From Thermodesulfovibrionia bacterium (GTDB lineage Bacteria; Nitrospirota; Thermodesulfovibrionia; UBA6902), in contig JAGVGM010000348.1 in the NCBI GenBank assembly GCA_020057065.1, positions 345 to 64,344 on the forward strand: DNA of 64,000 nt, in the 5' to 3' direction. Below the pieces are notes generated by a model. That model searched no databases, was not told where the DNA came from, and was given only the letters and a program-made list of their open reading frames with translations. Position numbers and translations under genes: made by a program. Positions 11,864-64,000 of the stretch are shown here, in pieces. Position 1 is the stretch's first letter. Every line of letters begins with the position of its first letter.

Positions 11864-11864
11864 C

Positions 11865-16027: not shown

Positions 16028-16124
16028 ATTCTTTAATTAATTTTTAATTACAAATTAACAATTCACAATTAATGAGTTATTTATTTCATTAATTATTAAT
16101 TAATCATTGCTCATTGTTAATTAT
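16028..16124. repeat. A+T-rich dyad spacer (TAATGAG/AATTAACAAT family)
   Basis: AATTAACAAT (left) faces ATTGTTAATT (right). It shares AATTAACAATT with 8573-8583. Confidence 0.7.
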
Positions 16125-16883: not shown

Positions 16884-16886
16884 TTG

Positions 16887-16925
16887 TCTCTCTTAACTCT
16901 TAACTCCGAACTCTTAACTCTCTTA
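16887..16925. repeat. Simple-sequence spacer (CTCTTAA-type units)
   Basis: TCTCTCTTAACTCTTAACTCCGAACTCTTAACTCTCTTA fills the whole mlaE-mlaF spacer. Confidence 0.7.
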
Positions 16926-17699: not shown

Positions 17700-17786
17700 G
17701 TCAAATTATACGATATTTTGAATTTTGCTGAAAGAGTTTTTTTTCGGTGTGTAATTGGGCATGAGGTTGTGTAGGGGCAGGTCGCA

Positions 17787-47242: not shown

Positions 47243-47299
47243 GGAATAACTTTCGTCCTTTTTGTTATTGCGGCTTATCCGCAATCGTACTCAATAAAA

Positions 47300-47322
47300 G
47301 ATTCCGAACAAGTCGGAATGAC
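47300..47322. repeat. Single hairpin unit of GTCAT...ATGAC family
   Basis: GATTCCGA-ACAAG-TCGGAATGAC. Confidence 0.65.
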
Positions 47323-47403
47323 AAACCCCGGCAAGGGGAAATGACGCCTGCGGCTGCCTTTAAAGTCATGGGCTGTCACTAATATCCATGTGGATCGAAT
47401 ATA

Positions 47404-47778
47404 TCAGGCCAAATTTATCATCTTGACTTCGCTTCCCTTATACAAGACAAAATGAGCATCCGTTGTATAGATCTCTTTTACTTTGGCTTCTACAAGTGAA
47501 GCAATAATTAGTGAATCTAATCCGGGAATATTATACTTATGAGAAATGTGACCGGCTTTTAGCGCGACCTCTTCATTGATGGGAATAACGGAGATGGAGA
47601 GTTTAATATCATCGATAATCGAGTGCCATTTGCGAAAATGTCCCTGTAAAAGTTTTTTTTGCAGTTCAAATAAAACGACGCTGGAAGTAATTATTTCCCG
47701 ATCTTTCCATATCCTGATAGCCGTAGGATTTTGTTCTTCTAATGCAAAGAAAAAACCTGTATCAACCCCTGCAACCAT
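47404..47778 (-). CDS. vapC: PIN-domain toxin (VapC-like)
   Basis: I set the start at ATG 47778 (MVAGVDTGFFFALEE). C-terminal motif is GLDSLIIASLVEAKVKEIYTTDAHF. Overlaps the upstream RHH gene by 17 nt. Confidence 0.8.
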   Translation of the reverse strand: MVAGVDTGFFFALEEQNPTAIRIWKDREIITSSVVLFELQKKLLQGHFRKWHSIIDDIKLSISVIPINEEVALKAGHISHKYNIPGLDSLIIASLVEAKVKEIYTTDAHFVLYKGSEVKMINLA

Positions 47779-48007
47779 CAGCCCCTGTCCTTTCCCTGTG
47801 AAAATTTTCCCAGCCTTTCTTCCCTCCAAGTGGTTTATCTTTGAAGAATTTCAAGACGCGTTCTTTTGCTTTCCTTTTTTCTTCTTCGTGCAGATACTGC
47901 TCAACAGCTTCACGCAATATTTGCGAAACCGGAATCTTGGCAGCCGATGCCTTTGCTTTGATTACCTCCAATATTTTTTGACTTAGATGTAAACTAACCG
48001 CCGGCAT
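47762..48007 (-). CDS. RHH (CopG-like) antitoxin
   Basis: I set the start at ATG 48007, preceded by GGAGG-N8. Sequence is MPAVSLHLSQKILEVIKAKASAAKIPVSQILREAVEQYL. Confidence 0.75.
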   Translation of the reverse strand: MPAVSLHLSQKILEVIKAKASAAKIPVSQILREAVEQYLHEEEKRKAKERVLKFFKDKPLGGKKGWENFHRERTGADGCRG

Positions 48008-48070
48008 ATATTTCACCTCCAAAATTCATTTGAATTTATAAAAATATCATAACATTATTCGTTCTCATTC

Positions 48071-48136
48071 TGTCATACCGGACTTGATTCGGCATCCAGT
48101 GACTTTTTTCTGGATTCCCGTTTTCACGGGAATGAA
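48071..48136. repeat. Degenerate units of GTCAT...ATGAC family
   Basis: TGTCATACCGGACTTGATTCGGCATCCAGTGAC and GGATTCCCG-TTTTCA-CGGGAATGAAG. Confidence 0.6.
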
Positions 48137-48191
48137 GAAAGCAGAGCTACGACCCTGAAATAAGTTCACGATAACAGCAATAGATATTAAT

Positions 48192-51100: not shown

Positions 51101-51242
51101 TGTTTATCTCATTAAAAGAAATCCGGTGGTCTTCATAATGCTTTAACGTCTGCCCGTCAACTGAGGCTTTTTCATAAGCGCTGACCCTTATCTTTTCACC
51201 TTCTCTAATCAGGTCGAGTATAAAAACAGATGCCTTGCTCAT
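48192..51242 (-). CDS. Membrane-spanning CHAT (caspase-like) / DUF4384-like / trypsin-like serine protease / Asp-rich repeat fusion protein
   Basis: 1016 aa. CHAT spans aa ~100-355 (HYAGH215ADYD, FANAC258HSG). TM spans aa ~401-420 (SKIIYGILIVFALVAIFYSI). The DUF4384-like part is DAYIYILIYDSNGEASQLFP. The S1-type triad is TNWH738V, ITD776LALL, GNS857GGPL. The C-terminus carries DxDxDG-like repeats. The start overlaps the anti-sigma stop (ATGA). Confidence 0.85.
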   Translation of the reverse strand: MSKASVFILDLIREGEKIRVSAYEKASVDGQTLKHYEDHRISFNEINRLCKEVVTLLNRANRRGEIVPEVINDLKKAGQNLYDELLTPKAKNSLRSTLSDTLVLYLDDQLVHIPWELLFDGEEFLCLKFGIGRIVSTKQSMVRIQKRGKRESLNVLIMADPQGNLEAAYKEGIKIRDELSEKAEKIKVSLVSSQTDIQYIKKNMRDFDIVHYAGHADYDLNNPSQSGWVMYDGKMTASDIIKMAGSAPLPSLIFANACHSGRTGEWNITEGFENEIYGLANAFLLAGVTHYIGTFWEVLDSPSSVFAIEFYRAVAENASIGQALLKARKQLIEIYGKNNIIWASYMLYGDPSFEIFTKTATAETESLQFAGAHKEIPMDKKDNKFRSPDSDSDKHSKKAFSKIIYGILIVFALVAIFYSIKGKVKPTDENTSSIQSQKVDAITNTSPLELSMNIIGQREESDGSVSEVIIREGGILRSYDNFQVHFSSNKDAYIYILIYDSNGEASQLFPDPKIPLSNKIENGKDYSVPAEGQWFWLDENIGTETIYVLASEKPLNNIEQMLGKMEGVTSEQKKAISSKVRNEIQLVERGVGGITEGKAKSFHLKGGKAIQSVTEIVKGTGAVVRAISFRHIGNKPLMSKNITKKGKEISELNNILIRSSEPSLIKILDTSERTTNEKAIENNFKNINKNLLLEDSRGVGGVQVYKEVSPAVVLVGTDESIGSGSVLNNQGNVLTNWHVINGYDRVVVFFKPQKGVGLKKENAYTAKVIKVDEITDLALLKIEYPPDKLPVVKLGSMDEVEIAQEVHAIGHPEGEIWTYTKGIISQIRPDYEWAYTDKVKHKSRVIQTQTPINPGNSGGPLLNDKAELIGINSFVKKGEGLNFAVSVDVIKEFMEKKESRFAQRPVAQKVSINDPLKNAKYYEIDLNDDGVTDAAGVDLNGNGKMDMYLVDLNHDKVLDYIDLDSDEDGKIDARAYDTNKNQKLDTWAYDTNGDGKIDLYGLDYDEDGEIDEYKES

Positions 51243-51949
51243 TTAACAGACTCCAGTTCCAGCGATATTCTGCCTATGACTTCTTTGCTTTTAACAATAT
51301 GCAGTTCGTAAATGCCATTCTGGATATTCTTAAAAGAAACCTGTCCGTTAATGGTCATAAATGAGGCAAGTTCCCTTTTCCCTAAAAGCAGATTAATTCT
51401 TAGATCATTTATTAGCGCGCCTGATTTACTATCAGATGTTTTTATATTCATTTCATAAGTAATGTCATCAACTCTCTCAACAATTATATCAACCTTGATT
51501 TCATCAAATGTGTTACTTAAGTGAACTACGTTCTTCATTTCTGCTGTAGTCCCCTGTCTAACTCCCGCAGTAGCAAGTCCCAAAGGAGTGAACATAGCGC
51601 CTGTATCCTTGAGAATTCTCACGGAATCTTTTGCAAATTCCAATACGACCTCAAGCAGGGATTTATAAGTTTTCGCCTTTACAAGGCTTTTTGCCCTGTC
51701 AGTAATTCCCTGAGAAGCTCTCATTAATTCTTCCTTCTCAAGGCCCTGTTTTACCCGGTGAAGAATTGTGCTCTGTTTACGGCAGGCGCTGCACAGATAA
51801 AGATGATTCTCAACTTTTTCTCTGGCTGCATTATCTAATATATTGTTAAGGTATGCGGCAAAGAGTTCTTCTGAGAGACATTCAGTGTGTTCTTTGTCTT
51901 CAGAATTCCTGCTGATGAGGACTTTTAGAAGTTTATCGTAATTATCCAT
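51239..51949 (-). CDS. Putative anti-sigma factor (zf-HC2 type), apparently soluble
   Basis: 236 aa with an N-terminal H-x3-C-x2-C motif (VENHLYLCSACRKQ). I see no convincing TM helix. The C-terminal half is beta-rich. It lies between the ECF sigma and the CHAT protease. Confidence 0.65.
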   Translation of the reverse strand: MDNYDKLLKVLISRNSEDKEHTECLSEELFAAYLNNILDNAAREKVENHLYLCSACRKQSTILHRVKQGLEKEELMRASQGITDRAKSLVKAKTYKSLLEVVLEFAKDSVRILKDTGAMFTPLGLATAGVRQGTTAEMKNVVHLSNTFDEIKVDIIVERVDDITYEMNIKTSDSKSGALINDLRINLLLGKRELASFMTINGQVSFKNIQNGIYELHIVKSKEVIGRISLELESVK

Positions 51950-51990
51950 AGCGCTCCCTTTTCTTCTCTTTCTTAAAAGACAACCACAGC

Positions 51991-52611
51991 CTATATTTCT
52001 TGCAACAAATTTTTCTTCTTTGCGATCTTCTGTAATTTATCAATAATCCTGCTTTTCTTGCTGTAGATGGCGCTGACCGATAAATTTATAATCCCTGCGA
52101 TTTCTTCGGGCTGCAACTCATCCTCAAAACAATACTTGAGAAATAACTTGTCATTAGGGCTTAGTCCCTCGATAAGCTCTCTTAACAGTTCAGCTTTCTC
52201 CGATTCCTTAATCTGCTCAATAACTGAAGGTTGAGGGTCTGGAATAGTATCTTTAAAGGTTCTTTCTTCGCTATCTGATCGATCATCCAATGAAATGGAG
52301 TCTTTATTCCTCTTAATGAAATTCAAGGTGGTATTCGTAGTGATAATCATTATCCAGCTTGAGACTGTACAACCATTAATCCCCTTGTACTGTCTTAATT
52401 TTTTGTAATCATTTTCAATCAGCGACAAAAAGACACTGTTATGTATATCCTCCAGATCCTGATACATAAAATTCGGACAATATATTTTCAGAGTTTTGTG
52501 AAGCGTATGATATACGAGGTCCGTATATCTTTCGACAAACTTATCCCATGCCGTTTTGTCCCCTTTGATACATGAGTTTAACAAATCCTTTTCTGAAAGC
52601 TCAGTGTTCAT
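51991..52611 (-). CDS. ECF-type RNA polymerase sigma factor
   Basis: I set the start at ATG 52611 (MNTELSEKDLL). Region 2 is FVERYTDLVYHTLHK...DIHNSVFLSLIEN. Region 4 is LSPNDKLFLKYCFEDELQPEEIAGIINLSVSAIYSKKSRI. Confidence 0.85.
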   Translation of the reverse strand: MNTELSEKDLLNSCIKGDKTAWDKFVERYTDLVYHTLHKTLKIYCPNFMYQDLEDIHNSVFLSLIENDYKKLRQYKGINGCTVSSWIMIITTNTTLNFIKRNKDSISLDDRSDSEERTFKDTIPDPQPSVIEQIKESEKAELLRELIEGLSPNDKLFLKYCFEDELQPEEIAGIINLSVSAIYSKKSRIIDKLQKIAKKKNLLQEI

Positions 52612-52633
52612 GTCCCGGAATTTTAATTGTTTA

Positions 52634-52662
52634 ATTATATTACCGCAAGAGGAGATTGTAAA
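52634..52662 (-). promoter_or_regulatory. Sigma-70-type promoter for the sigma/anti-sigma/CHAT unit
   Basis: The minus strand reads TTTACA (52662-52657) - 17 nt - TATAAT (52639-52634), about 23 nt upstream of ATG 52611. Confidence 0.55.
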
Positions 52663-52722
52663 CACTATCTATAAACAACCCATTCACAACAAAATCAAAA
52701 ATGTTAAAATCATAACGATAAG

Positions 52723-53475: not shown

Positions 53476-54684
53476 ATGAGTATGCTTAAAACCATCTTCA
53501 GTCGCCGCATGCTGGTATCCTTCCTCATGGGATTTTCCAGCGGTTTGCCGCTACTCCTGACCATAACGGTTTTACAGGCGTGGATGAAGGAAGAAGGAGT
53601 GGACTTGACCGTCATCGGTTTCATGTCCCTCGTCGGACTTCCGTACACAGTGAAATTTCTTTGGGCGCCTGTTATGGACCGCTTCACCCTGCCCTTCCTG
53701 GGACGCAGAAGAGGATGGCTGTTGACTGCACAGGCTGCAATGATCTGCTCAACTATTTTACTTGGTATTTCAGACCCGAAAAATCCCTGGATGATCGCGG
53801 TTGCTGCATTTCTTGTAACTTTTTTCAGCGCATCTCAGGATATCGTAGTGGACGCCTATCGGCGTGAAGACCTTGCTGATAATGAACTGGGTTTGGGTTC
53901 TTCACTTTACGTTAACGGTTATCGCGTTGGGATGCTCCTTGCCTCTGGAGGCGGACTTATTATGGCTGACCATATATCCTTTTCAGCAGTTTATCTAATT
54001 ATGGCCGCCTGTATGCTTGCAGGAGTTGTAACTACATTATTGACACCTGAACCAATTATACTTATCGAAACGCCGAGAAGCTTAAAAGAAGCTGTTTTCA
54101 ACCCTCTGACTGAATACTTTTCCAGACAGGGGGCCTGGTTGATACTCGCTTTTATCCTTCTTTATAAAATAGGCGATACCATGGCAAGCGCAATGACTAC
54201 GCCATTTTATCTCGATGTCGGCTTTTCAAAGACAGAGATTGGCACTGTAGTGAAACTTTTCGGTTTCTGGGCCACTATTATCGGAAGCCTGTTAGGAGGA
54301 GTAATAATGCTGGGTCTGGGGATATATCGTTCCCTCTGGATATTCGGTTTTTTCCAGGCGATATCAACTGCCGGTTTTGCACTGCTGGCAAATATCGGAT
54401 ACAGTGTACCGGCGCTTGCCGGAGTGATCGCTTTTGAAAATCTGAGCGGGGGCATGGGGACCGCTGCTTATGTTGCATTTATGGGAAGCATTACAAACAG
54501 GAAGTTCACCGCAACCCAATACGCCCTTCTGAGCAGCCTTATGGGCATACCAAGAGTACTGGCGTCCGCCCCGACAGGGTATCTTGCAAAAAATCTTGGC
54601 TGGACAAATTTTTTCATCATTTGTACCCTGATTGCGATCCCGGGTATGCTGCTTTTGTTGAAACTTGCTCCCAAAGAGGATTAA
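53476..54684 (+). CDS. ampG: AmpG-family muropeptide MFS permease
   Basis: 402 aa and about 12 TM, with GFSSGLPLLL, LWAPVMDRF...GRRRGWL and QDIVVDAYR. Confidence 0.8.
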   Translation: MSMLKTIFSRRMLVSFLMGFSSGLPLLLTITVLQAWMKEEGVDLTVIGFMSLVGLPYTVKFLWAPVMDRFTLPFLGRRRGWLLTAQAAMICSTILLGISDPKNPWMIAVAAFLVTFFSASQDIVVDAYRREDLADNELGLGSSLYVNGYRVGMLLASGGGLIMADHISFSAVYLIMAACMLAGVVTTLLTPEPIILIETPRSLKEAVFNPLTEYFSRQGAWLILAFILLYKIGDTMASAMTTPFYLDVGFSKTEIGTVVKLFGFWATIIGSLLGGVIMLGLGIYRSLWIFGFFQAISTAGFALLANIGYSVPALAGVIAFENLSGGMGTAAYVAFMGSITNRKFTATQYALLSSLMGIPRVLASAPTGYLAKNLGWTNFFIICTLIAIPGMLLLLKLAPKED

Positions 54685-54872
54685 CTCAGAAAATGCAGAT
54701 ATTGTCCCAAAATATAAAAATCCGAAATGTGTCACGGCACACTCATGTCCCTGTCCTCTACTGTGCAACTCTACTTTTTGAGAATCTAAATAAGTAACTT
54801 TTTCCCCAATCTATATTATAAGTCCTTAATAATTAAAATAGAATTAGAAATCATATTTATTTACTACCCTGC

Positions 54873-54888
54873 TGGCACTATAATTGCA
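54873..54888 (+). promoter_or_regulatory. Sigma-54 (-24/-12) promoter
   Basis: CTGGCAC-TATAA-TTGCA matches the YTGGCAC-N5-TTGCW consensus, with GG at 54874-75 and GC at 54886-87 (12-nt spacing). It lies 18 nt upstream of ATG 54906. Confidence 0.7.
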
Positions 54889-54947
54889 AAGATACTTTAC
54901 AGTTTATGGATATCTATGTAAATCAATTAAGCAATAGGGAGGAACGT

Positions 54948-55133
54948 TTGATTAATCATGCTGCAAGACAATGCTGTCCTTTAGTTCAGGAGCCTTTGGG
55001 TGATTGTTATTGTTTTAAATTAGGCAGTCAGGATATAGAGAACGCAGTTTATTACTGTAGTAAAAATTACAAGACATGCAATATTTACAAGGTCCAATTC
55101 TTCAAACATACAGGAGTCACCTTTGAAGCCTAA
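54948..55133 (+). CDS. Small Cys-rich protein, function unknown
   Basis: The track ORF starts at ATG 54906, but an in-frame TTG at 54948 has AGGGAGG 5 nt upstream. The product is ~61-75 aa with CC-x9-C-x-C ... C ... C. Confidence 0.35.
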   Translation: MINHAARQCCPLVQEPLGDCYCFKLGSQDIENAVYYCSKNYKTCNIYKVQFFKHTGVTFEA

Positions 55134-55486
55134 AAAAATATTCTTATTAATAAGAGTGTTCTTTTGTCTATTAGCATCCTCTGTTAATGCCGGGTTATGG
55201 GGGGAGAGTGTGGATATGGTTGACCTATAAGGATTAGCAAACCTTAGCTGATGATTTTACTGATTTTTCCATAAATAACAAACCGGTATCTATTCCTGCA
55301 GATATTAGAGGACCAAAATCCTGGGGGCCACGTCCAGACAATCCCGGCTATATTCATTTTATAGAGCGTCCTAATGTAGGTAATCCTCCGTTTGTACCGA
55401 TTGCGCCTGAACCGGTAAGCTATCTGCTCTTTATTGTCGGCGCGGCAGCATTGTCAGGCAAAATATATTTGAAAAGAAAAAAGTAA
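55123..55486 (+). pseudogene. Disrupted PEP-CTERM protein gene (signal-peptide ORF plus frame-separated PEP-CTERM tail)
   Basis: AGGAG-N6-TTG at 55123 starts MKPKKIFLLIRVFFCLLASSVNA|GLWGESVDMVDL* (stop at 55228-30). A different frame is open over 55235-55486 without any start codon and ends ...NPPFVPIAPEPVSYLLFIVGAAALSGKIYLKRKK* (PEP motif, TM, basic tail). Stops occur in all three frames at 55221-55234. Confidence 0.55.
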
Positions 55487-55515
55487 GATTAAGAAAATGT
55501 AATCACACAACAAAC

Positions 55516-55579
55516 GTCATTCCCGCTTGTCGGGAATCTTCTTTAAAACAAGGAAAGATTCCGGATTGTCCGGAATGAC
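55516..55579. repeat. Two tandem hairpin units of the GTCAT...ATGAC family
   Basis: GTC-ATTCCCG-CTTGT-CGGGAAT ... ATTCCGG-ATTGT-CCGGAAT-GAC. Confidence 0.8.
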
Positions 55580-55656
55580 AAAAAAAAGAATCTCTCAATT
55601 TAGGCAATTATCTCTCCAAGGTCAAGATCCGGCCACTTGTGTTATAATTTCCCGAA

Positions 55657-56745
55657 ATGGATATTCAGAAACTTGTAAAACCCAACATACGTTCACTTCG
55701 CGCATATCATGCTGAAGAAATCCCGTGTAAGGTAAAACTGGACGCAAATGAAAGCCCGTACTCAGCAATCAGCAATCAGCGGTCAGCAATCAGCTTAGAA
55801 AAAAATTTGCAAACGCTGAACCGCTATCCTGATCCGCAGGCAACAGCCCTCAGAAAACTCATGGCAAAGGAATTAAAAGTAAAGCCTGGAAATATCCTTC
55901 ACGGAAACGGTTCGGACGAGCTCATTTATTATATGATCACAACATTCGGCGGGTCGGTCATGTATCCTGTACCGACGTTCTCAATGTACGGGATTATTTC
56001 ACAGGCGCTTGACGAAAAAAAGATTGAGATACCACTGGACAAGGACTTCGACATTGATACAGAGAAGACCATAACAGCAATAAAGAAATACAGGCCGAAA
56101 CTGATATTTTTAAGTTCTCCCAATAATCCTACAGGCAATTGTTTTTCTTCAGAAAGGATCCTGAGAATCATCAAGGCCACGTCATTCAGCAAGCAACATA
56201 AGGGCGATTCACGAATCGCTCCTACATCGTCCCTTGTTGTGGTTGATGAGGCTTATCAATCATTTTCAAATGAAAAAAGTTTTTTACCGTTGCTCGATAA
56301 ATACAGAAACCTTATTGTTTTAAGGACCCTCAGCAAGATAGGACTTGCGGGTTTACGACTCGGCTTTCTCATTGCAAATGAAGAAATTATAAATGAGGTG
56401 AATAAAGTACGTCTTCCGTTCAATGTCAATTCACTTTCACAGGCGGTTGCAGTCGAGGCATTGAAAAATAAAAAACAGATGCGCTCATATTTAACTTCAA
56501 TTATTTCGGAAAGAAAAAGACTGTTTCGCGAGATGGAAAAAATAGACGGGATAACGCCGTATCCTTCGGATGCAAATTTTATATTATTCAGAGCAGCTGA
56601 TGCTGTCAGAGTATACAAACGTTTGTTAGCGAAAGGGGTCCTTATCCGGGACCTGACCGGAGTTATTGAAAATTGCCTGAGAGTGACCGTAGGAACCCCG
56701 GGGGAGAATACGGTTTTTCTGAGAACACTAAAACAATTAATATAA
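55657..56745 (+). CDS. hisC: Histidinol-phosphate aminotransferase
   Basis: 362 aa with LDANESPY, NRYPDP, VVVDEAYQSF and the PLP-lysine context LRTLSKIGLAGLRLGF. Two repeat-derived segments lie in frame. Confidence 0.92.
   Translation: MDIQKLVKPNIRSLRAYHAEEIPCKVKLDANESPYSAISNQRSAISLEKNLQTLNRYPDPQATALRKLMAKELKVKPGNILHGNGSDELIYYMITTFGGSVMYPVPTFSMYGIISQALDEKKIEIPLDKDFDIDTEKTITAIKKYRPKLIFLSSPNNPTGNCFSSERILRIIKATSFSKQHKGDSRIAPTSSLVVVDEAYQSFSNEKSFLPLLDKYRNLIVLRTLSKIGLAGLRLGFLIANEEIINEVNKVRLPFNVNSLSQAVAVEALKNKKQMRSYLTSIISERKRLFREMEKIDGITPYPSDANFILFRAADAVRVYKRLLAKGVLIRDLTGVIENCLRVTVGTPGENTVFLRTLKQLI
55762..55795. repeat. Heptamer repeat TCAGCRR x ~4.7 inside hisC
   Basis: TCAGCAA TCAGCAA TCAGCGG TCAGCAA TCAGC, translated as SAISNQRSAIS. 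Confidence 0.9.
56202..56225. repeat. GC-stem palindrome variant inside hisC
   Basis: GGGCGATTCACGAATCGCTCCTAC (imperfect arms GGGCGATTC/GAATCGCTC plus the family TAC tail), translated within SFSKQHKGDSRIAPTSS just before VVVDEAY. Confidence 0.6.
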
Positions 56746-56771
56746 AAATTCTAATTAATGGAGGTCTTTAA

Positions 56772-57365
56772 ATGCCGAGAAAAGCAACGATCACAAGAAA
56801 GACAAAAGAGACCAATATAAAACTGAGCATCAATCTTGACGGTACAGGGGCTTACAAAGCAAACACCTCGATCCCTTTTGTGGACCACATGCTGAGTCTT
56901 ATGTCGAAACACGGGCATATAGATTTAAATATTGAGGCAAAGGGAGATATAGAAGTAGATTATCATCACCTCATGGAAGATATCGGTATTGTGCTGGGAG
57001 AGGCCATTAAAAAAGCGCTTGGTGAAAAATTACAGATAAGGCGATACGGCGAAGCATTGACCCCTATGGATGAAAGCCTTGCACAGGTTGTGATCGACCT
57101 GAGCGGAAGGGCTTATCTGGTTTACAGAGTAAGACTGTCTAAAGAAACTGCATTAATTCAAAATCTCGGGGTATCGCTTTTTGAGGATTTTTTCAGGGCC
57201 ATGACAAATCACGCAGGGATGAATCTGCATATAATCCTTCATTACGGCCGGGACCCTCACCATATCTTTGAGGCGATCTTTAAAGGATTGGGAAGGGCCT
57301 TACGTACTGCGTCAGAGATCCATCCCAAGGCAAAGGGCGTGCCGTCAACAAAGGGAACGCTTTAA
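56772..57365 (+). CDS. hisB: Imidazoleglycerol-phosphate dehydratase
   Basis: 197 aa with RKTKETNI, VDYHHLMEDIGI and HHIFEAIFKGLGRAL. Confidence 0.95.
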   Translation: MPRKATITRKTKETNIKLSINLDGTGAYKANTSIPFVDHMLSLMSKHGHIDLNIEAKGDIEVDYHHLMEDIGIVLGEAIKKALGEKLQIRRYGEALTPMDESLAQVVIDLSGRAYLVYRVRLSKETALIQNLGVSLFEDFFRAMTNHAGMNLHIILHYGRDPHHIFEAIFKGLGRALRTASEIHPKAKGVPSTKGTL

Positions 57366-57421
57366 AATGACTGTGTTAAGATTTATTTTATAAATTCATA
57401 GATGGAAAGGATGGTGTATTT

Positions 57422-58633
57422 ATGGCAATTAAAAGAATAGGTATTATTACAAGCGGTGGAGACGCCGGTGGACTGAATGCAGTAATTAAAGGCGTTGCGC
57501 GTGAGGCGTATGCGCATGGAATTGAATCTGTTGTTATTCCCAACGGATATGCAGGTCTTTATAACCTCGTTGATCTGGAACAGGTTGTTGTGCTCAATGC
57601 GGATCGGGTAAGCCGTATAGAAGCATCGCTTGCAGGTTCGGAGGCAGGCCATTCAAGGGTAAAAATAAGCAAGATAAAAGACCCAAACACATACACAAGG
57701 ATAAAAGACGGGCTGAAGAAGTTCGGCATTGACGCATTGATAATAAGCGGCGGAGATGACACCGGCAGCGTAGTTGTAGACCTCGGCGGGCAGGGCATCC
57801 CCTGCGTGCATGTCCCCAAGACTATGGACCTCGACCTTCAGCCTTACAGTGTCGGCGGTGATTCCGCGATCAACAGGATAGCAGTGATGACGCGCGACTT
57901 AAAAACTACCGGCATGAGCCATAACCGCGTCATGGTAATTGAAGTGTTTGGACGCTACGTCGGTCACACTGCGTTTCGCGGCGGCATCGGCGCAGAGGCC
58001 GACTGCATACTGATTCCTGAAATTCCTGTTGACTTTGACGTTATCTACGAGCATATTAAGGCCACATATTTCAACAGAATTGAAAGGAGCGATGTCAAAG
58101 CAGGCACATATATGATGGTAGTTGCAGAGGGAATTATGACAGCATCAGGCGAGCTGCTTTATGACGAATCTGCAGGAGTCGATGCCTTCGGACACAAAAA
58201 ACTTGCCGGCGCCGGAAAATATGTGAGACAACAGATTGAGAAGAGGATGAAGGTGGACCCTGCGATAAAGGAATTCATGAAAAAGGTCGGCATGTTTGCA
58301 CCGGGGGTGTATGAAATACCGGAGGTGAGGGAAGTAGCTCCGAGCCATCTTGTGCGCTGCGGCCAGACTTCCGCCTATGACGTGAACTTCGGCTACAGGG
58401 CAGGAGCTGCGGGGGTACTGCTGCTGCTTCAGGGTAAGACGGGCAATACGGTTGTTGACGTGAGCGGTAAAAAAGTGTTTTATATGCCGACAACTGAGGC
58501 TATCAAACGGAGAGAGGTTGATGTAAGCGAGATAGCCCTCTTTGAAAGCCTGGGAATATGCTTCGGGAGAAAACCGCAGAAATATGAGTTTGAATGTGAA
58601 CAGGCATCAATGCCGATAGACCGGCACGTGTAA
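57422..58633 (+). CDS. pfp: 6-phosphofructokinase, probably pyrophosphate-dependent
   Basis: 403 aa with ITSGGDAGGLNAVI. SGGDDTGS has Asp at the position equivalent to E. coli PfkA G104, and VPKTMDLDL has Lys at the position equivalent to G124. Both are the PPi-type residues. Confidence 0.75.
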   Translation: MAIKRIGIITSGGDAGGLNAVIKGVAREAYAHGIESVVIPNGYAGLYNLVDLEQVVVLNADRVSRIEASLAGSEAGHSRVKISKIKDPNTYTRIKDGLKKFGIDALIISGGDDTGSVVVDLGGQGIPCVHVPKTMDLDLQPYSVGGDSAINRIAVMTRDLKTTGMSHNRVMVIEVFGRYVGHTAFRGGIGAEADCILIPEIPVDFDVIYEHIKATYFNRIERSDVKAGTYMMVVAEGIMTASGELLYDESAGVDAFGHKKLAGAGKYVRQQIEKRMKVDPAIKEFMKKVGMFAPGVYEIPEVREVAPSHLVRCGQTSAYDVNFGYRAGAAGVLLLLQGKTGNTVVDVSGKKVFYMPTTEAIKRREVDVSEIALFESLGICFGRKPQKYEFECEQASMPIDRHV

Positions 58634-58639
58634 AAAAAT

Positions 58640-58657
58640 AATTAGTAATGAGTAATT
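58640..58657. repeat. 18-nt core identical to 8587-8604
   Basis: AATTAGTAATGAGTAATT, followed by GTTAATGAG. Confidence 0.85.
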
Positions 58658-58719
58658 GTTAATGAGTGAAACTCCTCGCGGCAAGTCGCAGGGAGTTTCA
58701 CTATTTTAAGTTCCGGAAC

Positions 58720-61593
58720 ATGAACATAACCCCTTACCATGCAAAATATTTTGCATACGAACTTACCCGCCGATATTCGTCAGACAGCTTACAAAAACTT
58801 GCAGCTTCATTATCCGATGCACAGGTTGATCTAAATCCCCATCAGATTGAAGCCGCACTGTTTGCCTTCCGCTCACCGCTTTCAAAAGGCGCTATTCTTG
58901 CGGATGAAGTTGGATTAGGAAAGACCATCGAGGCCGGTATTGTCATTTCGCAGAAATGGGCTGAACGCAAGAGAAAGATATTGATTATTGTTCCTTCCAG
59001 TCTTCGTAAACAGTGGAATCAGGAACTGACGGATAAATTCTTTTTGCCCTCGATTATTCTTGAGACAAAATCTTTCAATCAGGAAATCAAAAACGGAAAT
59101 CTGAATCCGTTTAGACAAAATGACATTGTAATATGTTCCTACCATTTTGCAAAAGCGAAAGATGTCTATATCAAACAGATCAACTGGGATTTGATAGTCA
59201 TTGATGAGGCACATCATTTACGGAATGTTTATAAGAACAGCAATAAGATCGCCAATGCTATCAAGGCTGCCGTAGCGCATTCGCCAAAACTTCTGCTTAC
59301 TGCAACCCCCCTTCAAAACACCCTCATGGAACTTTACGGATTGGTAAGCATCATTGATGATTATACGTTCGGAGATTTGCCAAGCTTCAAGAGCCGGTTT
59401 GCGCGATTGACCAACAATGATAATTTCGATGATTTAAAAGAGCGGTTAAAACCAATTTGCAAACGGACATTGAGGAGGCAGGTTCTTGAATATGTGAAAT
59501 ACACAAACCGCATTCCCATAACACAGGAATTTTATCCTACGGAAAATGAACAAAAGCTTTATGATCTGGTATCAGAATATTTGCAACGACAAAACCTTTA
59601 TGCTCTGCCTGCAAGTCAAAGGCAATTGATGACACTTATTCTCCGCAAACTGCTTGCATCGTCTACTTATGCAATCTCAGGAACATTAGAAGCGCTATCA
59701 AATAAATTAGATACAATTGTCGAAAATCAGGAAACCGCACCATTGTTTGATGAAAAAATATCAGAGGATTTTGAAATACTTGATGAGATGAAAGATGAGT
59801 GGACAGAAGACGATGAGGAGGCAGAAGAAACAAAGACCTACACCCCTGAAGAAATAAAATCAATCAAGGAAGAAAGTAAGTCCCTGAAGGAATTTCACGC
59901 ACTGGCAACATCAATAAAAAAGAACTCTAAAGGTGAGGTATTGATGACCGCATTGAAAGCAGGCTTTGCCGAGGCTGAGACGCGAGGCGGCGTTAAAAAG
60001 GCGGTTATCTTTACCGAATCAACCAGAACACAGAAATATCTCAATAATATTTTGGAGAATGCCGAATACAGCGGAAAAATTGTCCTGTTCAACGGCTCAA
60101 ATACTGATCCTAAATCACAGGAAATTTACAAACATTGGATTGAAAAGCATCAAGGGACTGACAGGATTACCGGCTCAAAGAGTGCTGATATGCGCGCCGC
60201 ACTGGTTGAGTATTTCAGGGATGAAGCAATTATTATGATCGCTACCGAAGCAGGGGCTGAAGGAATTAATTTGCAGTTTTGCTCATTGGTAGTCAATTAT
60301 GATCTTCCATGGAATCCACAGAGGATTGAGCAGAGAATTGGCAGATGCCACCGCTATGGACAAAGGCATGATGTCGTTGTAGTTAATTTTCTGAATAAGA
60401 AGAACGCCGCTGACCTCAGAGTCTATCAACTGTTATCAGAGAAATTTAAATTATTTGAAGGCGTATTCGGAGCAAGCGATGAAGTCTTAGGCAGTATTGA
60501 ATCAGGTGTTGATTTCGAAAAACGCATTGCTCAAATTTACCAGCAATGCAGATCAGAGGAAGAAATACAGACTGCATTTGACACCCTTCAGAAAGAGATG
60601 GAGCCGCAGATTGATGAGACAATGAGTCTTACCAGACGAAGACTGTTTGAGAACTTTGACGAGGAAGTGCATGAGAAACTAAGGATCAATTTAAAGGAAA
60701 GCAGAGAGTATCTTTCAAAATATGAAAACTGGCTCTGGCAGGTGACTAAATACTATCTTGACCCTTATGCTGACTTTGCAGAAGATGATTATTCTTTCAT
60801 GTTGCGTGAAAATCCCTTTGGAAGTGAAACAATACATCCGGGACCTTACAGGATAGGCAAGAACATTGAGGACGCTAACATTTACAGGATTGGACATCCC
60901 CTTGCCCAGCGTCTTATAGATAAGTGCAAATCCTTATCGCCGGACAGCCAAGAGGTAGTCTTTGATTACTCAAATACACCGAAGAGGATCAGCATCCTTG
61001 AGCCTTTTGTCGGTAAATCAGGCTGGTTGTCAGTAGCAAATCTGACTATACATTCTTTTGAATCGGAGGATAACATTCTGTTTTGTGGTATAACTGATAA
61101 TGACTTAGAACTCGATAGAGAACAATGTCAAAGGCTTTTTTCTTTATCCGCAGTTGTAGCTCCCATCCTTGATAAGGAGGGGTTAGGGGTGGTTGAGAAA
61201 CAAATTCAGCATATTGCCCACAAACAGCAGTCTGCCATTCTTCAAACCAATGCCGAACGCAACGGCGGCTTTTTTGATACCGAGATTGAAAAACTGGACA
61301 AATGGGCTGAGGACGTAAAAAACAGTATCGAATTAGAACTGAAGGAACTTGACCGTGAAATTAAAGCAGGGAAGACAGAGGCAAAAAAGATTCTGAATCT
61401 TGAGGAAAAGGTAAAAGCACAGCGACAAATAAAAGAGATGGAGAAGAAGCGAAATGAATTGAGGATGAATCTGTATCAGGCGCAGGATGAGATTGATCTG
61501 AAAAAGGAAAAGCTGATTAACGAAATAGAGTCACGGATGAAGCAACAGATAGAAACTAATGAGTTGTTTACTATAAAATGGAAGGTAGTTTAG
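58720..61593 (+). CDS. SNF2-family helicase with long C-terminal coiled-coil region
   Basis: I set the start at ATG 58720 (MNITPYHAKYFAYELTRR). Motifs are LADEVGLGKTIEAG, VIDEAHHLRN, LLLTATPLQN and QRIGRCHRYGQ. The C-terminal ~330 aa are non-helicase and carry a K/E-rich coiled coil. Confidence 0.85.
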   Translation: MNITPYHAKYFAYELTRRYSSDSLQKLAASLSDAQVDLNPHQIEAALFAFRSPLSKGAILADEVGLGKTIEAGIVISQKWAERKRKILIIVPSSLRKQWNQELTDKFFLPSIILETKSFNQEIKNGNLNPFRQNDIVICSYHFAKAKDVYIKQINWDLIVIDEAHHLRNVYKNSNKIANAIKAAVAHSPKLLLTATPLQNTLMELYGLVSIIDDYTFGDLPSFKSRFARLTNNDNFDDLKERLKPICKRTLRRQVLEYVKYTNRIPITQEFYPTENEQKLYDLVSEYLQRQNLYALPASQRQLMTLILRKLLASSTYAISGTLEALSNKLDTIVENQETAPLFDEKISEDFEILDEMKDEWTEDDEEAEETKTYTPEEIKSIKEESKSLKEFHALATSIKKNSKGEVLMTALKAGFAEAETRGGVKKAVIFTESTRTQKYLNNILENAEYSGKIVLFNGSNTDPKSQEIYKHWIEKHQGTDRITGSKSADMRAALVEYFRDEAIIMIATEAGAEGINLQFCSLVVNYDLPWNPQRIEQRIGRCHRYGQRHDVVVVNFLNKKNAADLRVYQLLSEKFKLFEGVFGASDEVLGSIESGVDFEKRIAQIYQQCRSEEEIQTAFDTLQKEMEPQIDETMSLTRRRLFENFDEEVHEKLRINLKESREYLSKYENWLWQVTKYYLDPYADFAEDDYSFMLRENPFGSETIHPGPYRIGKNIEDANIYRIGHPLAQRLIDKCKSLSPDSQEVVFDYSNTPKRISILEPFVGKSGWLSVANLTIHSFESEDNILFCGITDNDLELDREQCQRLFSLSAVVAPILDKEGLGVVEKQIQHIAHKQQSAILQTNAERNGGFFDTEIEKLDKWAEDVKNSIELELKELDREIKAGKTEAKKILNLEEKVKAQRQIKEMEKKRNELRMNLYQAQDEIDLKKEKLINEIESRMKQQIETNELFTIKWKVV

Positions 61594-61635
61594 AAAAGTG
61601 AGTCGGTTACAAAATGTAACCGGCTGAAACTGGAA

Positions 61636-61723
61636 GCAGCCGACGGGAAGCTGGGGTCGTGCAGGAAACAATAATATAGAAACAAATCTATTGTTTCTTG
61701 TAAAATTGGAGCTGACTTAAGGA
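61636..61723 (+). repeat. Conserved leader, copy 1 (direct repeat of 63635-63716)
   Basis: GCAGCCGA..GCTGGGGTCGTGCAGGAAACAATAAT.TAGA.ACAAA...ATTGTTTCTTGTAAAAT.GGAGCTGA.TTA.GAA. Internal 9-bp hairpin GAAACAATA/TATTGTTTC. Confidence 0.8.
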
Positions 61724-61733
61724 ATATAACTTC

Positions 61734-63584
61734 ATGAAGAATCAATATATAAATGATATTTTGTCCAGGATTCAATCTTCACTTGAAACGGGGAAGTTCA
61801 TTTCTATTGAAACAGAGTTCGTGGAGTTGAAAGGTTTATCGACCGGTGGTGATTGGAAATCCCTCAAAGAGACGGTCTGTGCTTTCCTTAATACAAATGG
61901 CGGTTATATTATTGCAGGTATTCATGAAAGGAATAAGCAATATGTTTTAAATGGATTTAACAGGGATAATGAGTCAAACCTGATTGATTTACGTAAAATC
62001 TTTCAGGCAGATAACGGAACCTTACCTGATTTATCTGATTATCTATCCTTTGAATATGAAGATTTTCAAAATACTAATCTGGTAGTTGTCTTAGTCCGTC
62101 CAGTTCCGGAAGACCTCAAATATCTGAAATTTGACGGCATTTATTATGAACGTATTCTATCGCAGGACAAAAAGATACCTGATACAAAAATACTCCAGCA
62201 TCAGGAGTATAAGCAAGAGCTTGAGTATGCGAAAGAAATCACACCGATTACAGAAGCGTCTATAAATGATTTAAGCCTTGATAAGATCAACCATTACATC
62301 ACTCTGCTTAATAGAGAAATCAGGAAAGAAACCTTAAAGGCGGATTTGCAGCAGTCTATGTCTTTTCTTGAAAGGCAGTATTTCATAAGACAGGAGCAGA
62401 TAACCACACTTGGGATGCTTATTTCCGGAGATGATCCGTTTCACTTTCTTGAAAACAGGGTAGAGGTCGATTGCTATCTTGATACCGGAGAATCTATTGC
62501 AAAGGATAAAAAGATATTCAGAAATGATGTGATAAGCCTTATGGAGGATACCTTCAAATTTGTATGGGGCAATATAAAGATAGGTCGGTCTGTTAGTGAA
62601 GGTGGCTCAACAGAACCTGAATATCCTGAAGATTTAATAAGAGAAGTTATCAATAATGCGTTAGCGCACAGGGATTATTATTCAAATAACTTTATTGCCG
62701 TAACTATAAAGCCCAATGAATATCTTGAAATAAAAAACCCCGGTACATTTAAACAGAAACTCACAGTCTCTCATCACACACATGAAATGCAGATCAGAAG
62801 GATTATTCCCGGAATTCCAGAGACCAAAAATCCCAAGCTTGCTTCTGCTTTGAAAGTATTTGAAAAAATAGAAAGCAGGGGCAGGGGAATGGCAACTTTG
62901 GTTAATGCCTGCCTGACAAACAAAATTGACCTGCCATATTATGATCTAAGCAATCCGGATACAATTTGCCTGAGAATTCCGTCAGGAAAATTAATTGATG
63001 AACAGATTGAAGGTTGGTTGAGCAGCTTTCGAAAATACATTCATAAAAAATCGGGCGACAATTTAACTGTTCATCATAAAGCTGTTCTTGCCTATTTTTA
63101 TAAATCAGAGGTCCTCAACCGTAAAAGGCTTTATACAATTCTGCTTGCTGAAAGCAATAATCACTTCAATGTAATTGAATCTCTGAAAAAGGCAGGACTG
63201 ATATTTGAACATCCTTTAAGCACAGAGAACGTGCCTCTTTACATGGTTGACAGAGAACTTATGAAAGACGATTTTTCGTCAGAGTTAAAAGCAATCTTTG
63301 AATCCGAATATATCTATCTTGACTCTGTATCTAAAAAAATACTGAATATTATTTACAGGCATACATTTTATAACGAAGAACCTGTGTCCGCAAGGCAGCT
63401 TACTCCTGAAATATATCGTACTGAGATTGGTTCCAAAATTGATATAAAAAAATTTGAAAATTTAGGCAGAAAAGTCAGAAACATGTGCAACAAACTGAAT
63501 AAAAAAACCATATTGATCAAGTCGTCCAAAGCCAAAGGCTACACTATAAATTCTGATTTCAAGAAACCGAATGGTTTGATTTAA
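61734..63584 (+). CDS. AlbA_2 (Schlafen-like) DNA-binding domain plus HATPase_c_4-like domain protein (COG2865 type)
   Basis: 616 aa with ETEFVELKG...ETVCAFLNTNGGYIIAGI (AlbA_2) and EDLIREVINNALAHRDY...GRGMATLV (ATPase-like). Confidence 0.75.
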   Translation: MKNQYINDILSRIQSSLETGKFISIETEFVELKGLSTGGDWKSLKETVCAFLNTNGGYIIAGIHERNKQYVLNGFNRDNESNLIDLRKIFQADNGTLPDLSDYLSFEYEDFQNTNLVVVLVRPVPEDLKYLKFDGIYYERILSQDKKIPDTKILQHQEYKQELEYAKEITPITEASINDLSLDKINHYITLLNREIRKETLKADLQQSMSFLERQYFIRQEQITTLGMLISGDDPFHFLENRVEVDCYLDTGESIAKDKKIFRNDVISLMEDTFKFVWGNIKIGRSVSEGGSTEPEYPEDLIREVINNALAHRDYYSNNFIAVTIKPNEYLEIKNPGTFKQKLTVSHHTHEMQIRRIIPGIPETKNPKLASALKVFEKIESRGRGMATLVNACLTNKIDLPYYDLSNPDTICLRIPSGKLIDEQIEGWLSSFRKYIHKKSGDNLTVHHKAVLAYFYKSEVLNRKRLYTILLAESNNHFNVIESLKKAGLIFEHPLSTENVPLYMVDRELMKDDFSSELKAIFESEYIYLDSVSKKILNIIYRHTFYNEEPVSARQLTPEIYRTEIGSKIDIKKFENLGRKVRNMCNKLNKKTILIKSSKAKGYTINSDFKKPNGLI

Positions 63585-63587
63585 TCA

Positions 63588-63713
63588 ATGTTGAAACCCC
63601 AAAAACTCGAACTCACATGGATAGGCAAGGATGAGCAGCCGAGGCTGGGGTCGTGTAGAAAGCAAATAATAGAGACAAACAAATTGTTTCTTGTAAAATG
63701 GAAGCTGATTTAG
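63588..63713 (+). pseudogene. Vestigial 5' end of a Mod-type (N4/N6) DNA methyltransferase gene
   Basis: The ORF reads MLKPQKLELTWIGKDEQPRLGSCRKQIIETNKLFLVKWKLI*. The KLELTWIGKDEQPRL block resembles the N-terminus I associate with PF01555-type Mod methylases. Resemblance stops at the start of the repeated leader. A more degraded version (KLEAADGKLGSCRKQ*) lies at 61624-61674. Confidence 0.45.
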
Positions 63714-63716
63714 AAG
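63635..63716 (+). repeat. Conserved leader, copy 2
   Basis: It aligns with 61636-61723 (see copy 1) and lies 1999 nt downstream of it. Confidence 0.8.
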
Positions 63717-63769
63717 AGGAGGGGCATGCAAAAAGAGCTTATCATGAAGCTCAACAAGGCTTTTGAAAT

Positions 63770-64000
63770 ATGAAATTTATTGAATCTGAAACAGTGGAAC
63801 TAAAAAAAACCACCTCTGAGATTAAAGAAGCGATTGTATCAATCGTTGCCATGCTCAATAAACATCAACACGGAGAATTATTTTTTGGAATTAATAACAC
63901 TGGCCTCGTGACCGGCCAGAACGTTACAGACAAGACATTGCGCGATGTATCAAAAGCCATATCAGACAATATCGAACCTAAAATTTATCCTGCCATAAGC
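63770..64000 (+). CDS. Second AlbA_2/Schlafen-like protein, N-terminal part (runs off window)
   Basis: Not in the track. From ATG 63770: MKFIESETVELKKTTSEIKEAIVSIVAMLNKHQHGELFFGINNTGLVTGQNV... The frame is open to nt 64000. It is preceded by a 15-codon ORF (63726-63773) whose TGA overlaps this ATG. Confidence 0.7.
   Translation, partial: MKFIESETVELKKTTSEIKEAIVSIVAMLNKHQHGELFFGINNTGLVTGQNVTDKTLRDVSKAISDNIEPKIYPAIS

Follow-up and report, generated by a model that had tools for sequence, protein, structure and literature searches.

How defence genes move into genomic islands, and between them, without an obvious mobile element is an open question, and it is raised in a concrete form by the right-hand end of a 64,000-nt stretch of DNA from a Thermodesulfovibrionia bacterium (contig JAGVGM010000348.1, positions 345 to 64,344; the whole stretch analysed is called the window below). 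Here a gene for an SNF2-family helicase is followed on the same strand by two genes with AlbA_2 (Schlafen-type) domains, each behind a short leader that begins like a methylase gene. An earlier note, made from the sequence alone, had described the arrangement as a tandem array of duplicated modules inserted at the 5' end of a methylase gene; open reading frames and Pfam agree with its placement of the helicase, with its DEAHHLRN box, and of both AlbA_2 genes. What are the leaders made of, and how did the genes behind them arrive? We consider it probable, at about 0.65, that a Type III-like restriction-modification (R-M) operon of three genes begins in the window, which would contain its first gene and a portion of its cargo slot, and that its cassettes have recombined via scars formed from the ends of the neighbouring genes.

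Two leaders and the gene ends in them

Each AlbA_2 gene in the window is preceded by a leader of about 100–125 nt, in which the first ~65 nt of a Type III methylase gene (mod) are joined to the last ~55 nt of the SNF2 gene. The leader is a composite scar rather than a free-standing element. A repeat search found three copies of one sequence, at 61540–61598, 61667–61725 and 63660–63718. The first, used as the reference copy, covers the 3' end of the helicase gene itself, and it is this sequence type that both leaders copy. For finer assignment, two DNA profiles were built from related loci, one from the 5' ends of 31 real mod genes and one from the 3' ends of 43 real helicase genes, and searched with nhmmer.

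The second leader is the better preserved. It begins 3 nt past the stop codon of the first AlbA_2 gene, like a real mod gene, and its 63594–63656 matches positions 4–66 of the mod 5' profile (E=1.6e-13), with 96.7% identity (58/60 nt) to the real mod start of a related locus, L001. The encoded peptide matches positions 1–21 of the PADLOC model MTase_III (E=0.003), so that the vestigial methylase start proposed in the earlier note holds, as does the significance of the KLELTWIGK similarity on which the proposal rested. The following 63660–63712 matches positions 43–95 of the helicase tail profile (E=6.7e-6), the counterpart of the helicase ending KQQIETNELFTIKWKVV being KQIIETNKLFLVKWKLI at 63660–63713. 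The two parts are fused in frame into a 41-codon mini-ORF (63588–63713) with the translation MLKPQKLELTWIGKDEQPRLGSCRKQIIETNKLFLVKWKLI, composed as MLKPQKLELTWIGKDEQPRL-GSC-RKQIIETNKLFLVKWKLI. A third gene end lies behind them: MQKELIMKLNKAFEI shares its first 13–14 residues with the 290–295-aa Bro-N proteins of L001 and L033. A Bro-N/DinD-like gene comes after the helicase in L001, L002 and L033, and in L033 the spacing from helicase stop to Bro-N/DinD start is ~13 nt, matching leader 2. The TGA stop of this remnant overlaps the ATG of the second AlbA_2 gene (ATGA).

The first leader is degraded. A damaged copy of the methylase start, LKLEAADGKLGSCRKQ, lies at 61624–61671, and its mod part was identified by alignment to leader 2 and to the better-kept leaders of four metagenome contigs described below (L051, L053, L054 and L055). 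Its SNF2 part stops 13 nt short of the start codon of AlbA_2 gene 1 and reaches E=0.24 against the tail profile when slot sequence is searched; it is identical at 66 of 76 positions to the leaders of L051, L053 and L054, and at 62 of 76 to that of L056, whose own SNF2-tail parts match the profile at E=2e-8 to 3e-6. The two leaders of the window align directly (61647–61719 with 63641–63712; 81% over 73 nt, E=6e-12) at a spacing of 1993–1994 nt, and leader 1 is a decayed form of the mod::helicase junction that leader 2 also carries. The conserved leader of the earlier note is thus present, although not as a separate element, its shared part being the SNF2 3' end. Of the two modules, the first measures 1994 nt, and the second runs off the end of the window. 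The leader was also considered as an RNA element, and this was rejected: there was no Rfam match at E≤1, and as single-stranded DNA neither strand of leader 2 folded better than its shuffles (z=0.26 and -0.29).

Table 1. Coordinates of the helicase gene, leader parts and cargo genes in the window (an asterisk marks a stop codon)
Feature	Coordinates	Strand	Basis or remark
SNF2-family helicase gene, 957 aa; first gene of the operon	58720..61593	+	ATG start; Pfam
True SNF2 3' end, KQQIETNELFTIKWKVV*	61540..61593	+	repeat search; nhmmer tail profile E=1.5e-18
Perfect stem-loop just 3' of the SNF2 stop	61603..61623		sequence; + strand lacks a T-run
Leader 1 part a: degraded mod 5' remnant LKLEAADGKLGSC, LTWIGKD codons deleted	61624..61663	+	alignments
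Leader 1 part b: degraded SNF2 3' remnant	61664..61720	+	repeat copy at 63%
Cargo gene 1: 616-aa Schlafen/AlbA_2 plus GHKL ATPase (HATPase_c_4)	61734..63584	+	Pfam
Leader 2 part a: mod 5' remnant MLKPQKLELTWIGKDEQPRLGSC	63588..63656	+	nhmmer head profile
Leader 2 part b: SNF2 3' remnant RKQIIETNKLFLVKWKLI*	63657..63713	+	nhmmer; repeat copy at 75%
DinD/Bro-N gene 5' remnant MQKELIMKLNKAFEI*, 15 codons	63726..63773	+	translation; comparison with L001 and L033
Cargo gene 2: first 77 codons of a second AlbA_2 gene	63770..64000	+	Pfam AlbA_2 5.4e-13; cut by the window end

A conserved operon with a variable slot

A scan of one genome per species returned 48 related loci (L001–L048), about 40 of which carry helicase orthologues at 56–92% identity; orthologues sharing 61–92% with the window helicase stand at the head of the same operon. 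These come from Nitrospirae, Planctomycetes (including Brocadia), deltaproteobacterial lineages, Bacteroidetes, Ignavibacteriaceae, Bdellovibrionota and others. The order helicase, variable slot, mod is kept on one strand in 31 of the 31 loci whose contig reaches mod, and a Res of ~890 aa comes after mod wherever the contig is long enough. The methylase of these relatives, ~550 aa in length, starts ..KLELTWIGK..LEPRILIEDPEKSYG, contains PF01555 in all 31 contigs and scores 660 bits against MTase_III; their Res carries ResIII (PF04851) and scores 608 bits against REase_III.

The same operon is found on plasmids. On a conjugative IncFIB plasmid of Salmonella from a human isolate (NZ_CP100694.1, L058; 6232–16247), SNF2, slot, Mod and Res follow one another, with an IS256 element, an Abi gene and a hypothetical gene in the slot. 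A Deinococcus plasmid (L059; 8995–19128) shows this order around a slot with AIPR, an HTH gene, a hypothetical gene and VapC. Helicase homologues occur in 60 plasmid records, mostly from Salmonella, Klebsiella and Providencia. RefSeq calls the members of the plasmid triads 'SNF2-related protein', 'site-specific DNA-methyltransferase' and 'DEAD/DEAH box helicase family protein', and such generic annotation is all that the SNF2-Mod-Res triad gets. No description of an SNF2–Type III triad, or of gene-end scars in R-M slots, was found in the literature. The presence of the triad on conjugative Salmonella plasmids brings the system, with the Schlafen-type effectors embedded in it, within reach of study in a tractable host.

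No intact mod or res lies inside the window itself. Nothing that extends it came from exact-protein look-ups with pfk, AlbA_2 gene 1 or the SNF2 protein read from either possible start; a 28-nt junction pattern had no match in JGI metagenomes, and at most 33% of the words of 61400–64000 are present in any one public run. The best guide to what follows is L024, the orthologous chromosomal locus in a related metagenome-assembled genome, with 78–84% nucleotide identity over ampG, hisC, pfk and the helicase; after its helicase come a 5.6-kb slot and then Mod and Res. In L001, whose helicase is 92% identical at the protein level, DinD, Mod and Res are present. By synteny with L024, an intact mod (expected start M..PQKLELTWIGKDEQPRLEPRILIEDPE) probably lies beyond nt 64000, and the cargo of the window would then sit inside the R-M operon.

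The slot varies in length from 70 nt (L009, L035) to about 7 kb (L006, L028). It is empty in 5 of the 31 loci reaching mod and holds cargo between SNF2 and mod, on the same strand, in the other 26; almost all cargo is on the operon (+) strand. Cargo was typed by clustering and Pfam annotation. AlbA_2/COG2865 genes are the commonest type (13 loci), ahead of the DUF1016/YhcG nuclease (8) and DinD/Bro-N (PADLOC PDC-S13; 7). The remainder includes DUF2130 with an OLD-type ATPase-TOPRIM, RhuM, SIR2 with HerA, AAA_21, AIPR and Fic, as well as DUF3800, RmuC, a HigB-like protein with HTH-M78, PDDEXK_3, GIY-YIG and a QueC-like protein. Even the slots of close relatives (the window, L001, L003, L024 and L028) differ completely: the window has two AlbA_2 genes, L001 has DinD, L024 has AlbA_2, DUF2130, OLD and Bro-N, and L028 carries a DUF2130 gene, a 955-aa gene and a pair of DUF1016 genes. 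The slots examined showed no integrase or recombinase gene other than insertion sequences, namely ISAzo13 in L031 and IS256 on the Salmonella plasmid, and positions 54000–64000 of the window contain no tyrosine-recombinase integrase.

A second, smaller cargo position follows mod; in L030 and L032 it lies between mod and res. It is occupied in L030 by a Fic gene (19095–20156), of which L028 has a close homologue at 11043–12104, and in L032 by a DUF559 (Vsr-like) gene (15578–16180). Several single loci show further rearrangement. In L005 (12912–20910), a helicase, Fic, AlbA_2, a second SNF2 helicase (PADLOC HmaA, 555 bits; NOV_C) and another Fic follow one another, and mod and res were not found at this locus. 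In L031, from Candidatus Brocadia pituitae, mod is split by an ISAzo13-family transposase (16066–18751). A small GIY-YIG gene stands between two pieces of a DUF1016 cargo gene in L026 (14680–16101), and the same GIY-YIG gene stands just after the DUF1016 gene of L031.

Scars that travel with cargo

The mod 5' profile was searched over the window and 696 kb of related loci, the slots amounting to 97 kb, at a threshold of E<1e-3. It found 31 real gene starts and 14 extra copies (13 in ten related loci and one in the window). All 14 extra copies lie inside slots in the orientation of the operon, with none on the minus strand. They sit upstream of a second or later cargo unit and keep the start of mod; their right ends range over profile positions 39–104, several falling at 66–68. 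Of the helicase end, a decayed remnant was seen right before DinD in L001, and a candidate match in L037 may be another (E=0.44).

The scars recur with the cargo outside the loci of the scan. Orthologues of AlbA_2 gene 1, 85–92% identical, were found on seven JGI metagenome contigs (L051–L057). Four of these (L051, L053, L054 and L055) carry the same junction of mod position 67 with SNF2-tail position 37, 14 nt upstream of the ATG of gene 1, and L056 has the SNF2-3' part only. A mod start lies 3 nt past the stop of gene 1 in all six contigs that reach there (L051–L054, L056 and L057), and its truncation point differs by context. Neighbours of gene 1 likewise vary: another AlbA_2 gene, DUF1016, PIN, ORF6N or, in L056, housekeeping genes. 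Logan environmental contigs continue beyond gene 1 either into a mod that looks intact (loose end ...AGCCGAGGATATTGATTGAAGACCCGGAGA) or with other breakpoints, which lie at 63631, 63636 and 63640. The pattern extends to other cargo, in that two DUF1016 cassette families each have their own left scar, with the same junction sequence, in loci of both Nitrospirae and Planctomycetes. Remnants are often nearer a foreign mod than the resident one (90.3% vs 85.9% for L028c). As the earlier note proposed, the AlbA_2/COG2865 genes are passengers at the 5' end of mod, each with its copy of the mod start.

Two of these contigs deserve separate mention. On the 96-kb contig L056 (7697–9898), gene 1 stands amid housekeeping genes, those for hydrogenase among them, and neither a helicase gene nor mod nor res is close by; it has a helicase-tail scar upstream and a mod-5' scar downstream, and an upstream 92-aa ORF starts like a different methylase type (TELVWEGKYDEYGNRREVDI). 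In L057 (570–1025), a 151-aa in-frame fusion of a Mod N-terminus to a Res C-terminus comes right after the gene 1 orthologue; here the R-M core is deleted and the cargo kept.

From these observations we infer a route by recombination. Even where overall identity is 47–54%, the C-terminus of the helicase and the N-terminus of Mod remain conserved; therefore the DNA flanking the slot is similar between sister operons, and a double crossover in these anchors would swap cargo tracelessly. Scars would form when cassettes from sister loci join by illegitimate or very-short-homology events. In L001, an 11-nt stretch is nearly identical between the SNF2 3' end (GAGTCGAGGAT; IESRM) and the mod 5' end (GAGCCGAGGAT; LEPRI), and the mod::SNF2 junction falls within this stretch, as would be expected from unequal exchange or circle formation between the two genes. 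Once made, a scar could travel with its cargo as a portable homology arm, since cargo lying between a mod-5' copy (left) and the real mod (right) would be flanked by direct repeats. A linear segment of scar, cargo and mod could enter a related operon by a RecA-type double crossover; alternatively, a circle could enter by a single crossover at the mod start. Either insertion route would regenerate an intact mod and add one unit to the array. The scars may also aid expression. Their mini-ORFs open at the ribosome-binding site of mod and close at the ATG of the cargo or shortly before it, and co-expression by translational coupling could follow. This model would account for the order seen in the window, the variable breakpoints, the lack of recombinases and the recurrence of cassette plus scar across phyla. 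Shuffling of cassettes by homologous recombination, with scars as portable arms, is in our view the most likely course of events.

Several points weigh against this account. Mod and res are not in the window, and public sequence gave no extension of the contig. Leader 1 is too decayed for the profiles alone (E=0.24) and was recognised only via leader 2 and the orthologous leaders, and the comparisons of remnant with resident mod span just 60–100 nt. Between the window and L051, the leader is conserved no better than coding sequence (87% vs 92%). The multi-cargo loci L011, L014, L018 and L027 and the two plasmids have no detectable scars; since such loci exist, scars are not required for the gain of cargo and could be mere inert remains. 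Neither circles nor pop-outs nor polymorphic junctions were observed. In addition, the nuclease nature of the cargo is uncertain, given Asn55 in gene 1 (see below). Joints in Logan contigs that appear to go back from gene 1 were considered as pop-out products and rejected, as they are leaders of the L051 type, closer to leader 2 than to the decayed leader 1.

The strongest competing explanation, and in our judgement still an unlikely one, is that the leaders are kept mainly as expression signals of the cargo (a ribosome-binding site, a coupling leader and possibly a promoter), their use as homology arms being incidental. Mini-ORFs do end at or near cargo starts, as in the ATGA at 63770 and in the TAG-ACA-ATG of the DUF1016-A units (3 nt), whereas leader 1 has a broken mini-ORF and that of L051–L055 stops early (KQ*). 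A promoter-like TAGAAA-18-TAAAAT (9/12) is present in all three SNF2-3' copies (61550–61579, 61677–61706 and 63670–63699), but the promoter scan as a whole did not rise above shuffles, with 16 matches against 13.4 ± 3.2 expected. Conservation points both ways: L051, L053 and L054 share an identical 75-nt stretch upstream of gene 1 while their coding sequences differ by 9% (third positions by 18%), and the comparison of the window with L051 finds the leader less conserved than the coding sequence. A role in expression complements exchange by recombination.

Much less probable is a site-specific cassette system in which the leaders are attachment sites, like attC and attI, and the recombinase is encoded elsewhere. 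A short conserved element does alternate with genes, the junction of mod ~67 with SNF2 tail ~37 recurs before different cargo (the window and L051–L055), and several remnants end near profile positions 66–68. The right ends of remnants are nevertheless spread over positions 39–104, the slots examined lack integrases and recombinases other than those of insertion sequences, and the leader consists of fragments of the flanking genes, with a single-stranded fold like that of shuffles and no Rfam match. We attribute the recurrence of the junction to common descent of one scar. The earlier note had left both a site-specific and a homology-driven mechanism open; the look of the locus is homology-driven, and variable breakpoints, missing recombinases and an unstructured leader disfavour the site-specific one.

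That the locus is a class 1 DISARM system, with the helicase as DrmD, the vestigial methylase as DrmMI and drmA, drmB and drmC past the window end, we regard as very improbable. The top PADLOC and NCBIfam matches of the helicase are indeed DrmD models. PADLOC DrmD PDLC02619, a model without a curated cut-off, gives 711 bits, and NCBIfam DISARM_DrmD_b gives 715 bits; the latter is below its cut-off of 950, and aa 30–673 alone are aligned, leaving the C-terminal 285 aa uncovered. NCBIfam DISARM_DrmD gives 281 bits against a cut-off of 610. The relatives' methylase is of the MTase_III/PF01555 type and their third gene is REase_III; the genes beyond Res vary, and none resembles DrmA, DrmB or DrmC. 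The mod remnant in the window is, moreover, the one nearly identical to the Type III mod start of L001. Because the partners are MTase_III and REase_III, DrmA/B/C are absent and the DrmD scores fall below cut-off, we read the system as Type III-like R-M with a constant SNF2 partner, not DISARM. Of the earlier note's suggestion of a defence locus with an adenine methylase, the Type III-like Mod/Res part therefore stands and the DISARM part does not.

The remaining two explanations have next to no weight. Plain tandem duplication, in which one AlbA_2 gene was copied along with the DNA upstream of it and without any special link to a methylase, would fit two AlbA_2 genes behind similar ~100-nt leaders 1994 nt apart; it is refuted by the two proteins, which lack significant similarity (BLASTP E=0.054), and with it falls the idea in the earlier note that the AlbA_2 modules were duplicated as an array. 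The two genes are unrelated paralogues between which the scars alone repeat: gene 2 is closest to a different cargo gene (67% identity, L005), the leaders are recognisable as pieces of mod, SNF2 and DinD, and gene 1 is found singly, with the same scars, in other contigs. An assembly chimera made by the repeated leader is very improbable, for although ~100-nt repeats can mis-join metagenome contigs and no public run has more than a third of the words of 61400–64000, the leaders at 81% identity are too diverged to collapse, independent contigs from other samples span scar, gene 1 and scar, and SNF2 joins leader 1 and gene 1 without sequence ambiguity.

Beyond exchange by scars, a broader reading is possible, and we offer it tentatively: SNF2-Mod-Res would be an unnamed, widespread defence platform, and its SNF2-to-mod junction a recombinase-free, integron-like landing pad. 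Cassettes, with pieces of the operon's gene ends as their homology arms, would pop out between direct mod-5' repeats and re-enter sister operons by RecA-type recombination, building arrays of back-up effectors and passing them across phyla. The strong conservation of the Mod N-terminus and the SNF2 C-terminus would then partly serve cassette exchange.

Cargo, neighbouring features and known systems

In cargo gene 1, Pfam finds AlbA_2 (PF04326) at aa 26–148 (1.5e-13) and HATPase_c_4 (PF13749) at aa 330–404, the order of AlbA_2 followed by GHKL that characterises 'Schlatpase'/COG2865-type proteins; the C-terminal ~200 aa have no family match. The protein weakly matches human SLFN12, with the E-x4-E-x-K motif aligned. 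In this weak match, E26 and E31 align with the two SLFN12 glutamates and Asn55 stands opposite the Asp of NTDGG. We take the acidic triad of the SLFN12 Schlafen RNase to be E200, E205 and D233, the Asp of NTDGG presumably being the catalytic D233. Because Asn55 replaces this Asp, nuclease activity of gene 1 is uncertain.

Cargo gene 2 shares 67% identity with the beginning of a 442-aa cargo gene in L005 (AlbA_2, HATPase_c_4, HTH_24). Searching for homologues with its 76-aa start gave short ORFs of 53–126 aa only. Two of these, read in context, are internally deleted relatives next to kdtA on Thermodesulfovibrionales-type contigs, an unrelated locus (L049, 7152–7741; L050, 8482–8806). Since the relatives are short ORFs and the two seen in context are internally deleted, genes of this type appear to be often decaying.

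The helicase carries SNF2-rel_dom (1.3e-36), Helicase_C (3e-20) and also ResIII, with the motifs GLGKT at aa 65, DEAHHLRN at aa 162–169 (nt 59203–59226) and QRIGRCHRYGQ at aa 538; its stop codon is 61591–61593. A coiled coil at the C-terminus is plausible from the composition of the last ~107 aa, 51% of which are K, E, R, D or Q. Translation likely starts at ATG 58720. The alternative GTG at 58666 falls within an 11–12-bp hairpin followed by ATTTT, directly 3' of the pfk stop (58665–58702; AGTGAAACTCC...GGAGTTTCACT), which ends 17 nt upstream of the helicase ATG and is probably the terminator of pfk. A palindrome, TTCCGGAA, overlaps the helicase ATG. The gene stands directly downstream of the housekeeping genes hisC, hisB and pfk. 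On its 3' side, the fold of 61594–61736 (z=-4.3) is caused by the stem-loop at 61603–61623, which has no counterpart at that position in L001 and could be a processing or stabilising hairpin. Further upstream in the window, the - strand of 44039–52665 encodes two proteins of more than 1000 aa (44039–47284 and 48192–51242), of TPR/CHAT-like and CHAT-plus-protease-like appearance if a guess by eye is right, adjoined by genes that look, again by eye, ECF-sigma-like and anti-sigma-like (51239–52665). GC content falls to 0.33 at 45–47 kb.

Among known systems, the nearest to the host operon is Type III R-M, in which Mod and Res, as in EcoP15I, hemimethylate an asymmetric site and cleavage depends on a pair of unmodified sites in inverse orientation. 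The relatives' genes after the slot fit it well, being a PF01555 Mod and then a ResIII-type Res in mod-then-res order. Unlike Type III R-M, the operon has a constant ~960-aa SNF2 helicase upstream, even at 31–54% identity (L040 and the plasmids), and a cargo slot that separates this helicase from mod. Class 1 DISARM is said to have been described by Ofir et al. in 2018 with a composition that includes drmA, drmB and drmC (PLD). The operon resembles it in that the best family match of the helicase is DrmD and an adenine methylase lies next to it; it differs in that the methylase is of Type III Mod type and relatives carry Res where DrmA/B/C would be. Integron arrays share promoterless-looking cassettes, each with a short conserved element, after a fixed gene, and the occurrence of the same cassette in different arrays. 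In contrast to integrons, the slot has no integrase, no attC-like folded site and variable breakpoints, and its conserved element is a fragment of a neighbour gene.

The cargo itself can be compared with the prokaryotic Schlafen effectors (Cash, SLFN-pAgo and 'Schlatpase'). Gene 1 combines PF04326 with PF13749, and the L005 homologue of gene 2 adds an HTH. In contrast to Cash and SLFN-pAgo, the window cargo is without a CARF/Csx15 or Argonaute sensor, and in contrast to SLFN12, gene 1 has Asn55 in place of the NTDGG Asp. Characterised prokaryotic Schlafens cleave tRNA as abortive-infection effectors, and links to R-M systems and other nucleases are described for more than half of the defence-associated Schlafen homologues (PMC13462974); 'Schlatpase' is the name given to the supradomain of SLFN and GHKL (bioRxiv 10.64898/2026.05.29.728809), and Schlafen-HK-wHTH proteins are back-up effectors embedded in BREX and BREX-related loci (PMC12839542). 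By analogy with these Schlafens and with PrrC, the Schlafen/AlbA_2 cargo of the window would most likely act as back-up effectors of the abortive-infection type.

In the PrrC paradigm, an effector is held inactive by an R-M complex and freed when a phage inhibits that complex. The slot resembles such embedded effectors of R-M and BREX systems in placing unrelated defence-type genes (Schlafen-GHKL-HTH, DUF1016, Abi/AIPR, OLD, Fic) inside a core operon in the same direction; PrrC itself, the classic example, is embedded in a Type Ic locus (PMC12707154). Here, by contrast, the host is an SNF2–Type III operon and the cassettes bear scars of both flanking core genes. The hotspots of Oliveira et al. 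2017 (PMC5635113) are likewise hypervariable segments between two conserved anchors, and such core-gene-flanked transfer hotspots turn over by homologous recombination in their flanks (PMC5635113). Unlike those hotspots, the slot has as anchors the last ~90 nt and the first ~100 nt of adjoining genes in a single defence operon, and duplicated anchor fragments ride along with the cargo. Accessory effectors embedded in R-M-type operons and hotspot turnover via flanking homology (PMC5635113) are thus already known, whereas the SNF2-Mod-Res host operon, the position of its slot and the legible, transferable gene-end scars appear to be new. These scars suggest a recombinase-free route of cassette exchange, and cassettes that carry the scars of both neighbours across phyla make it a concrete and testable one, with short gene ends as the homology arms.

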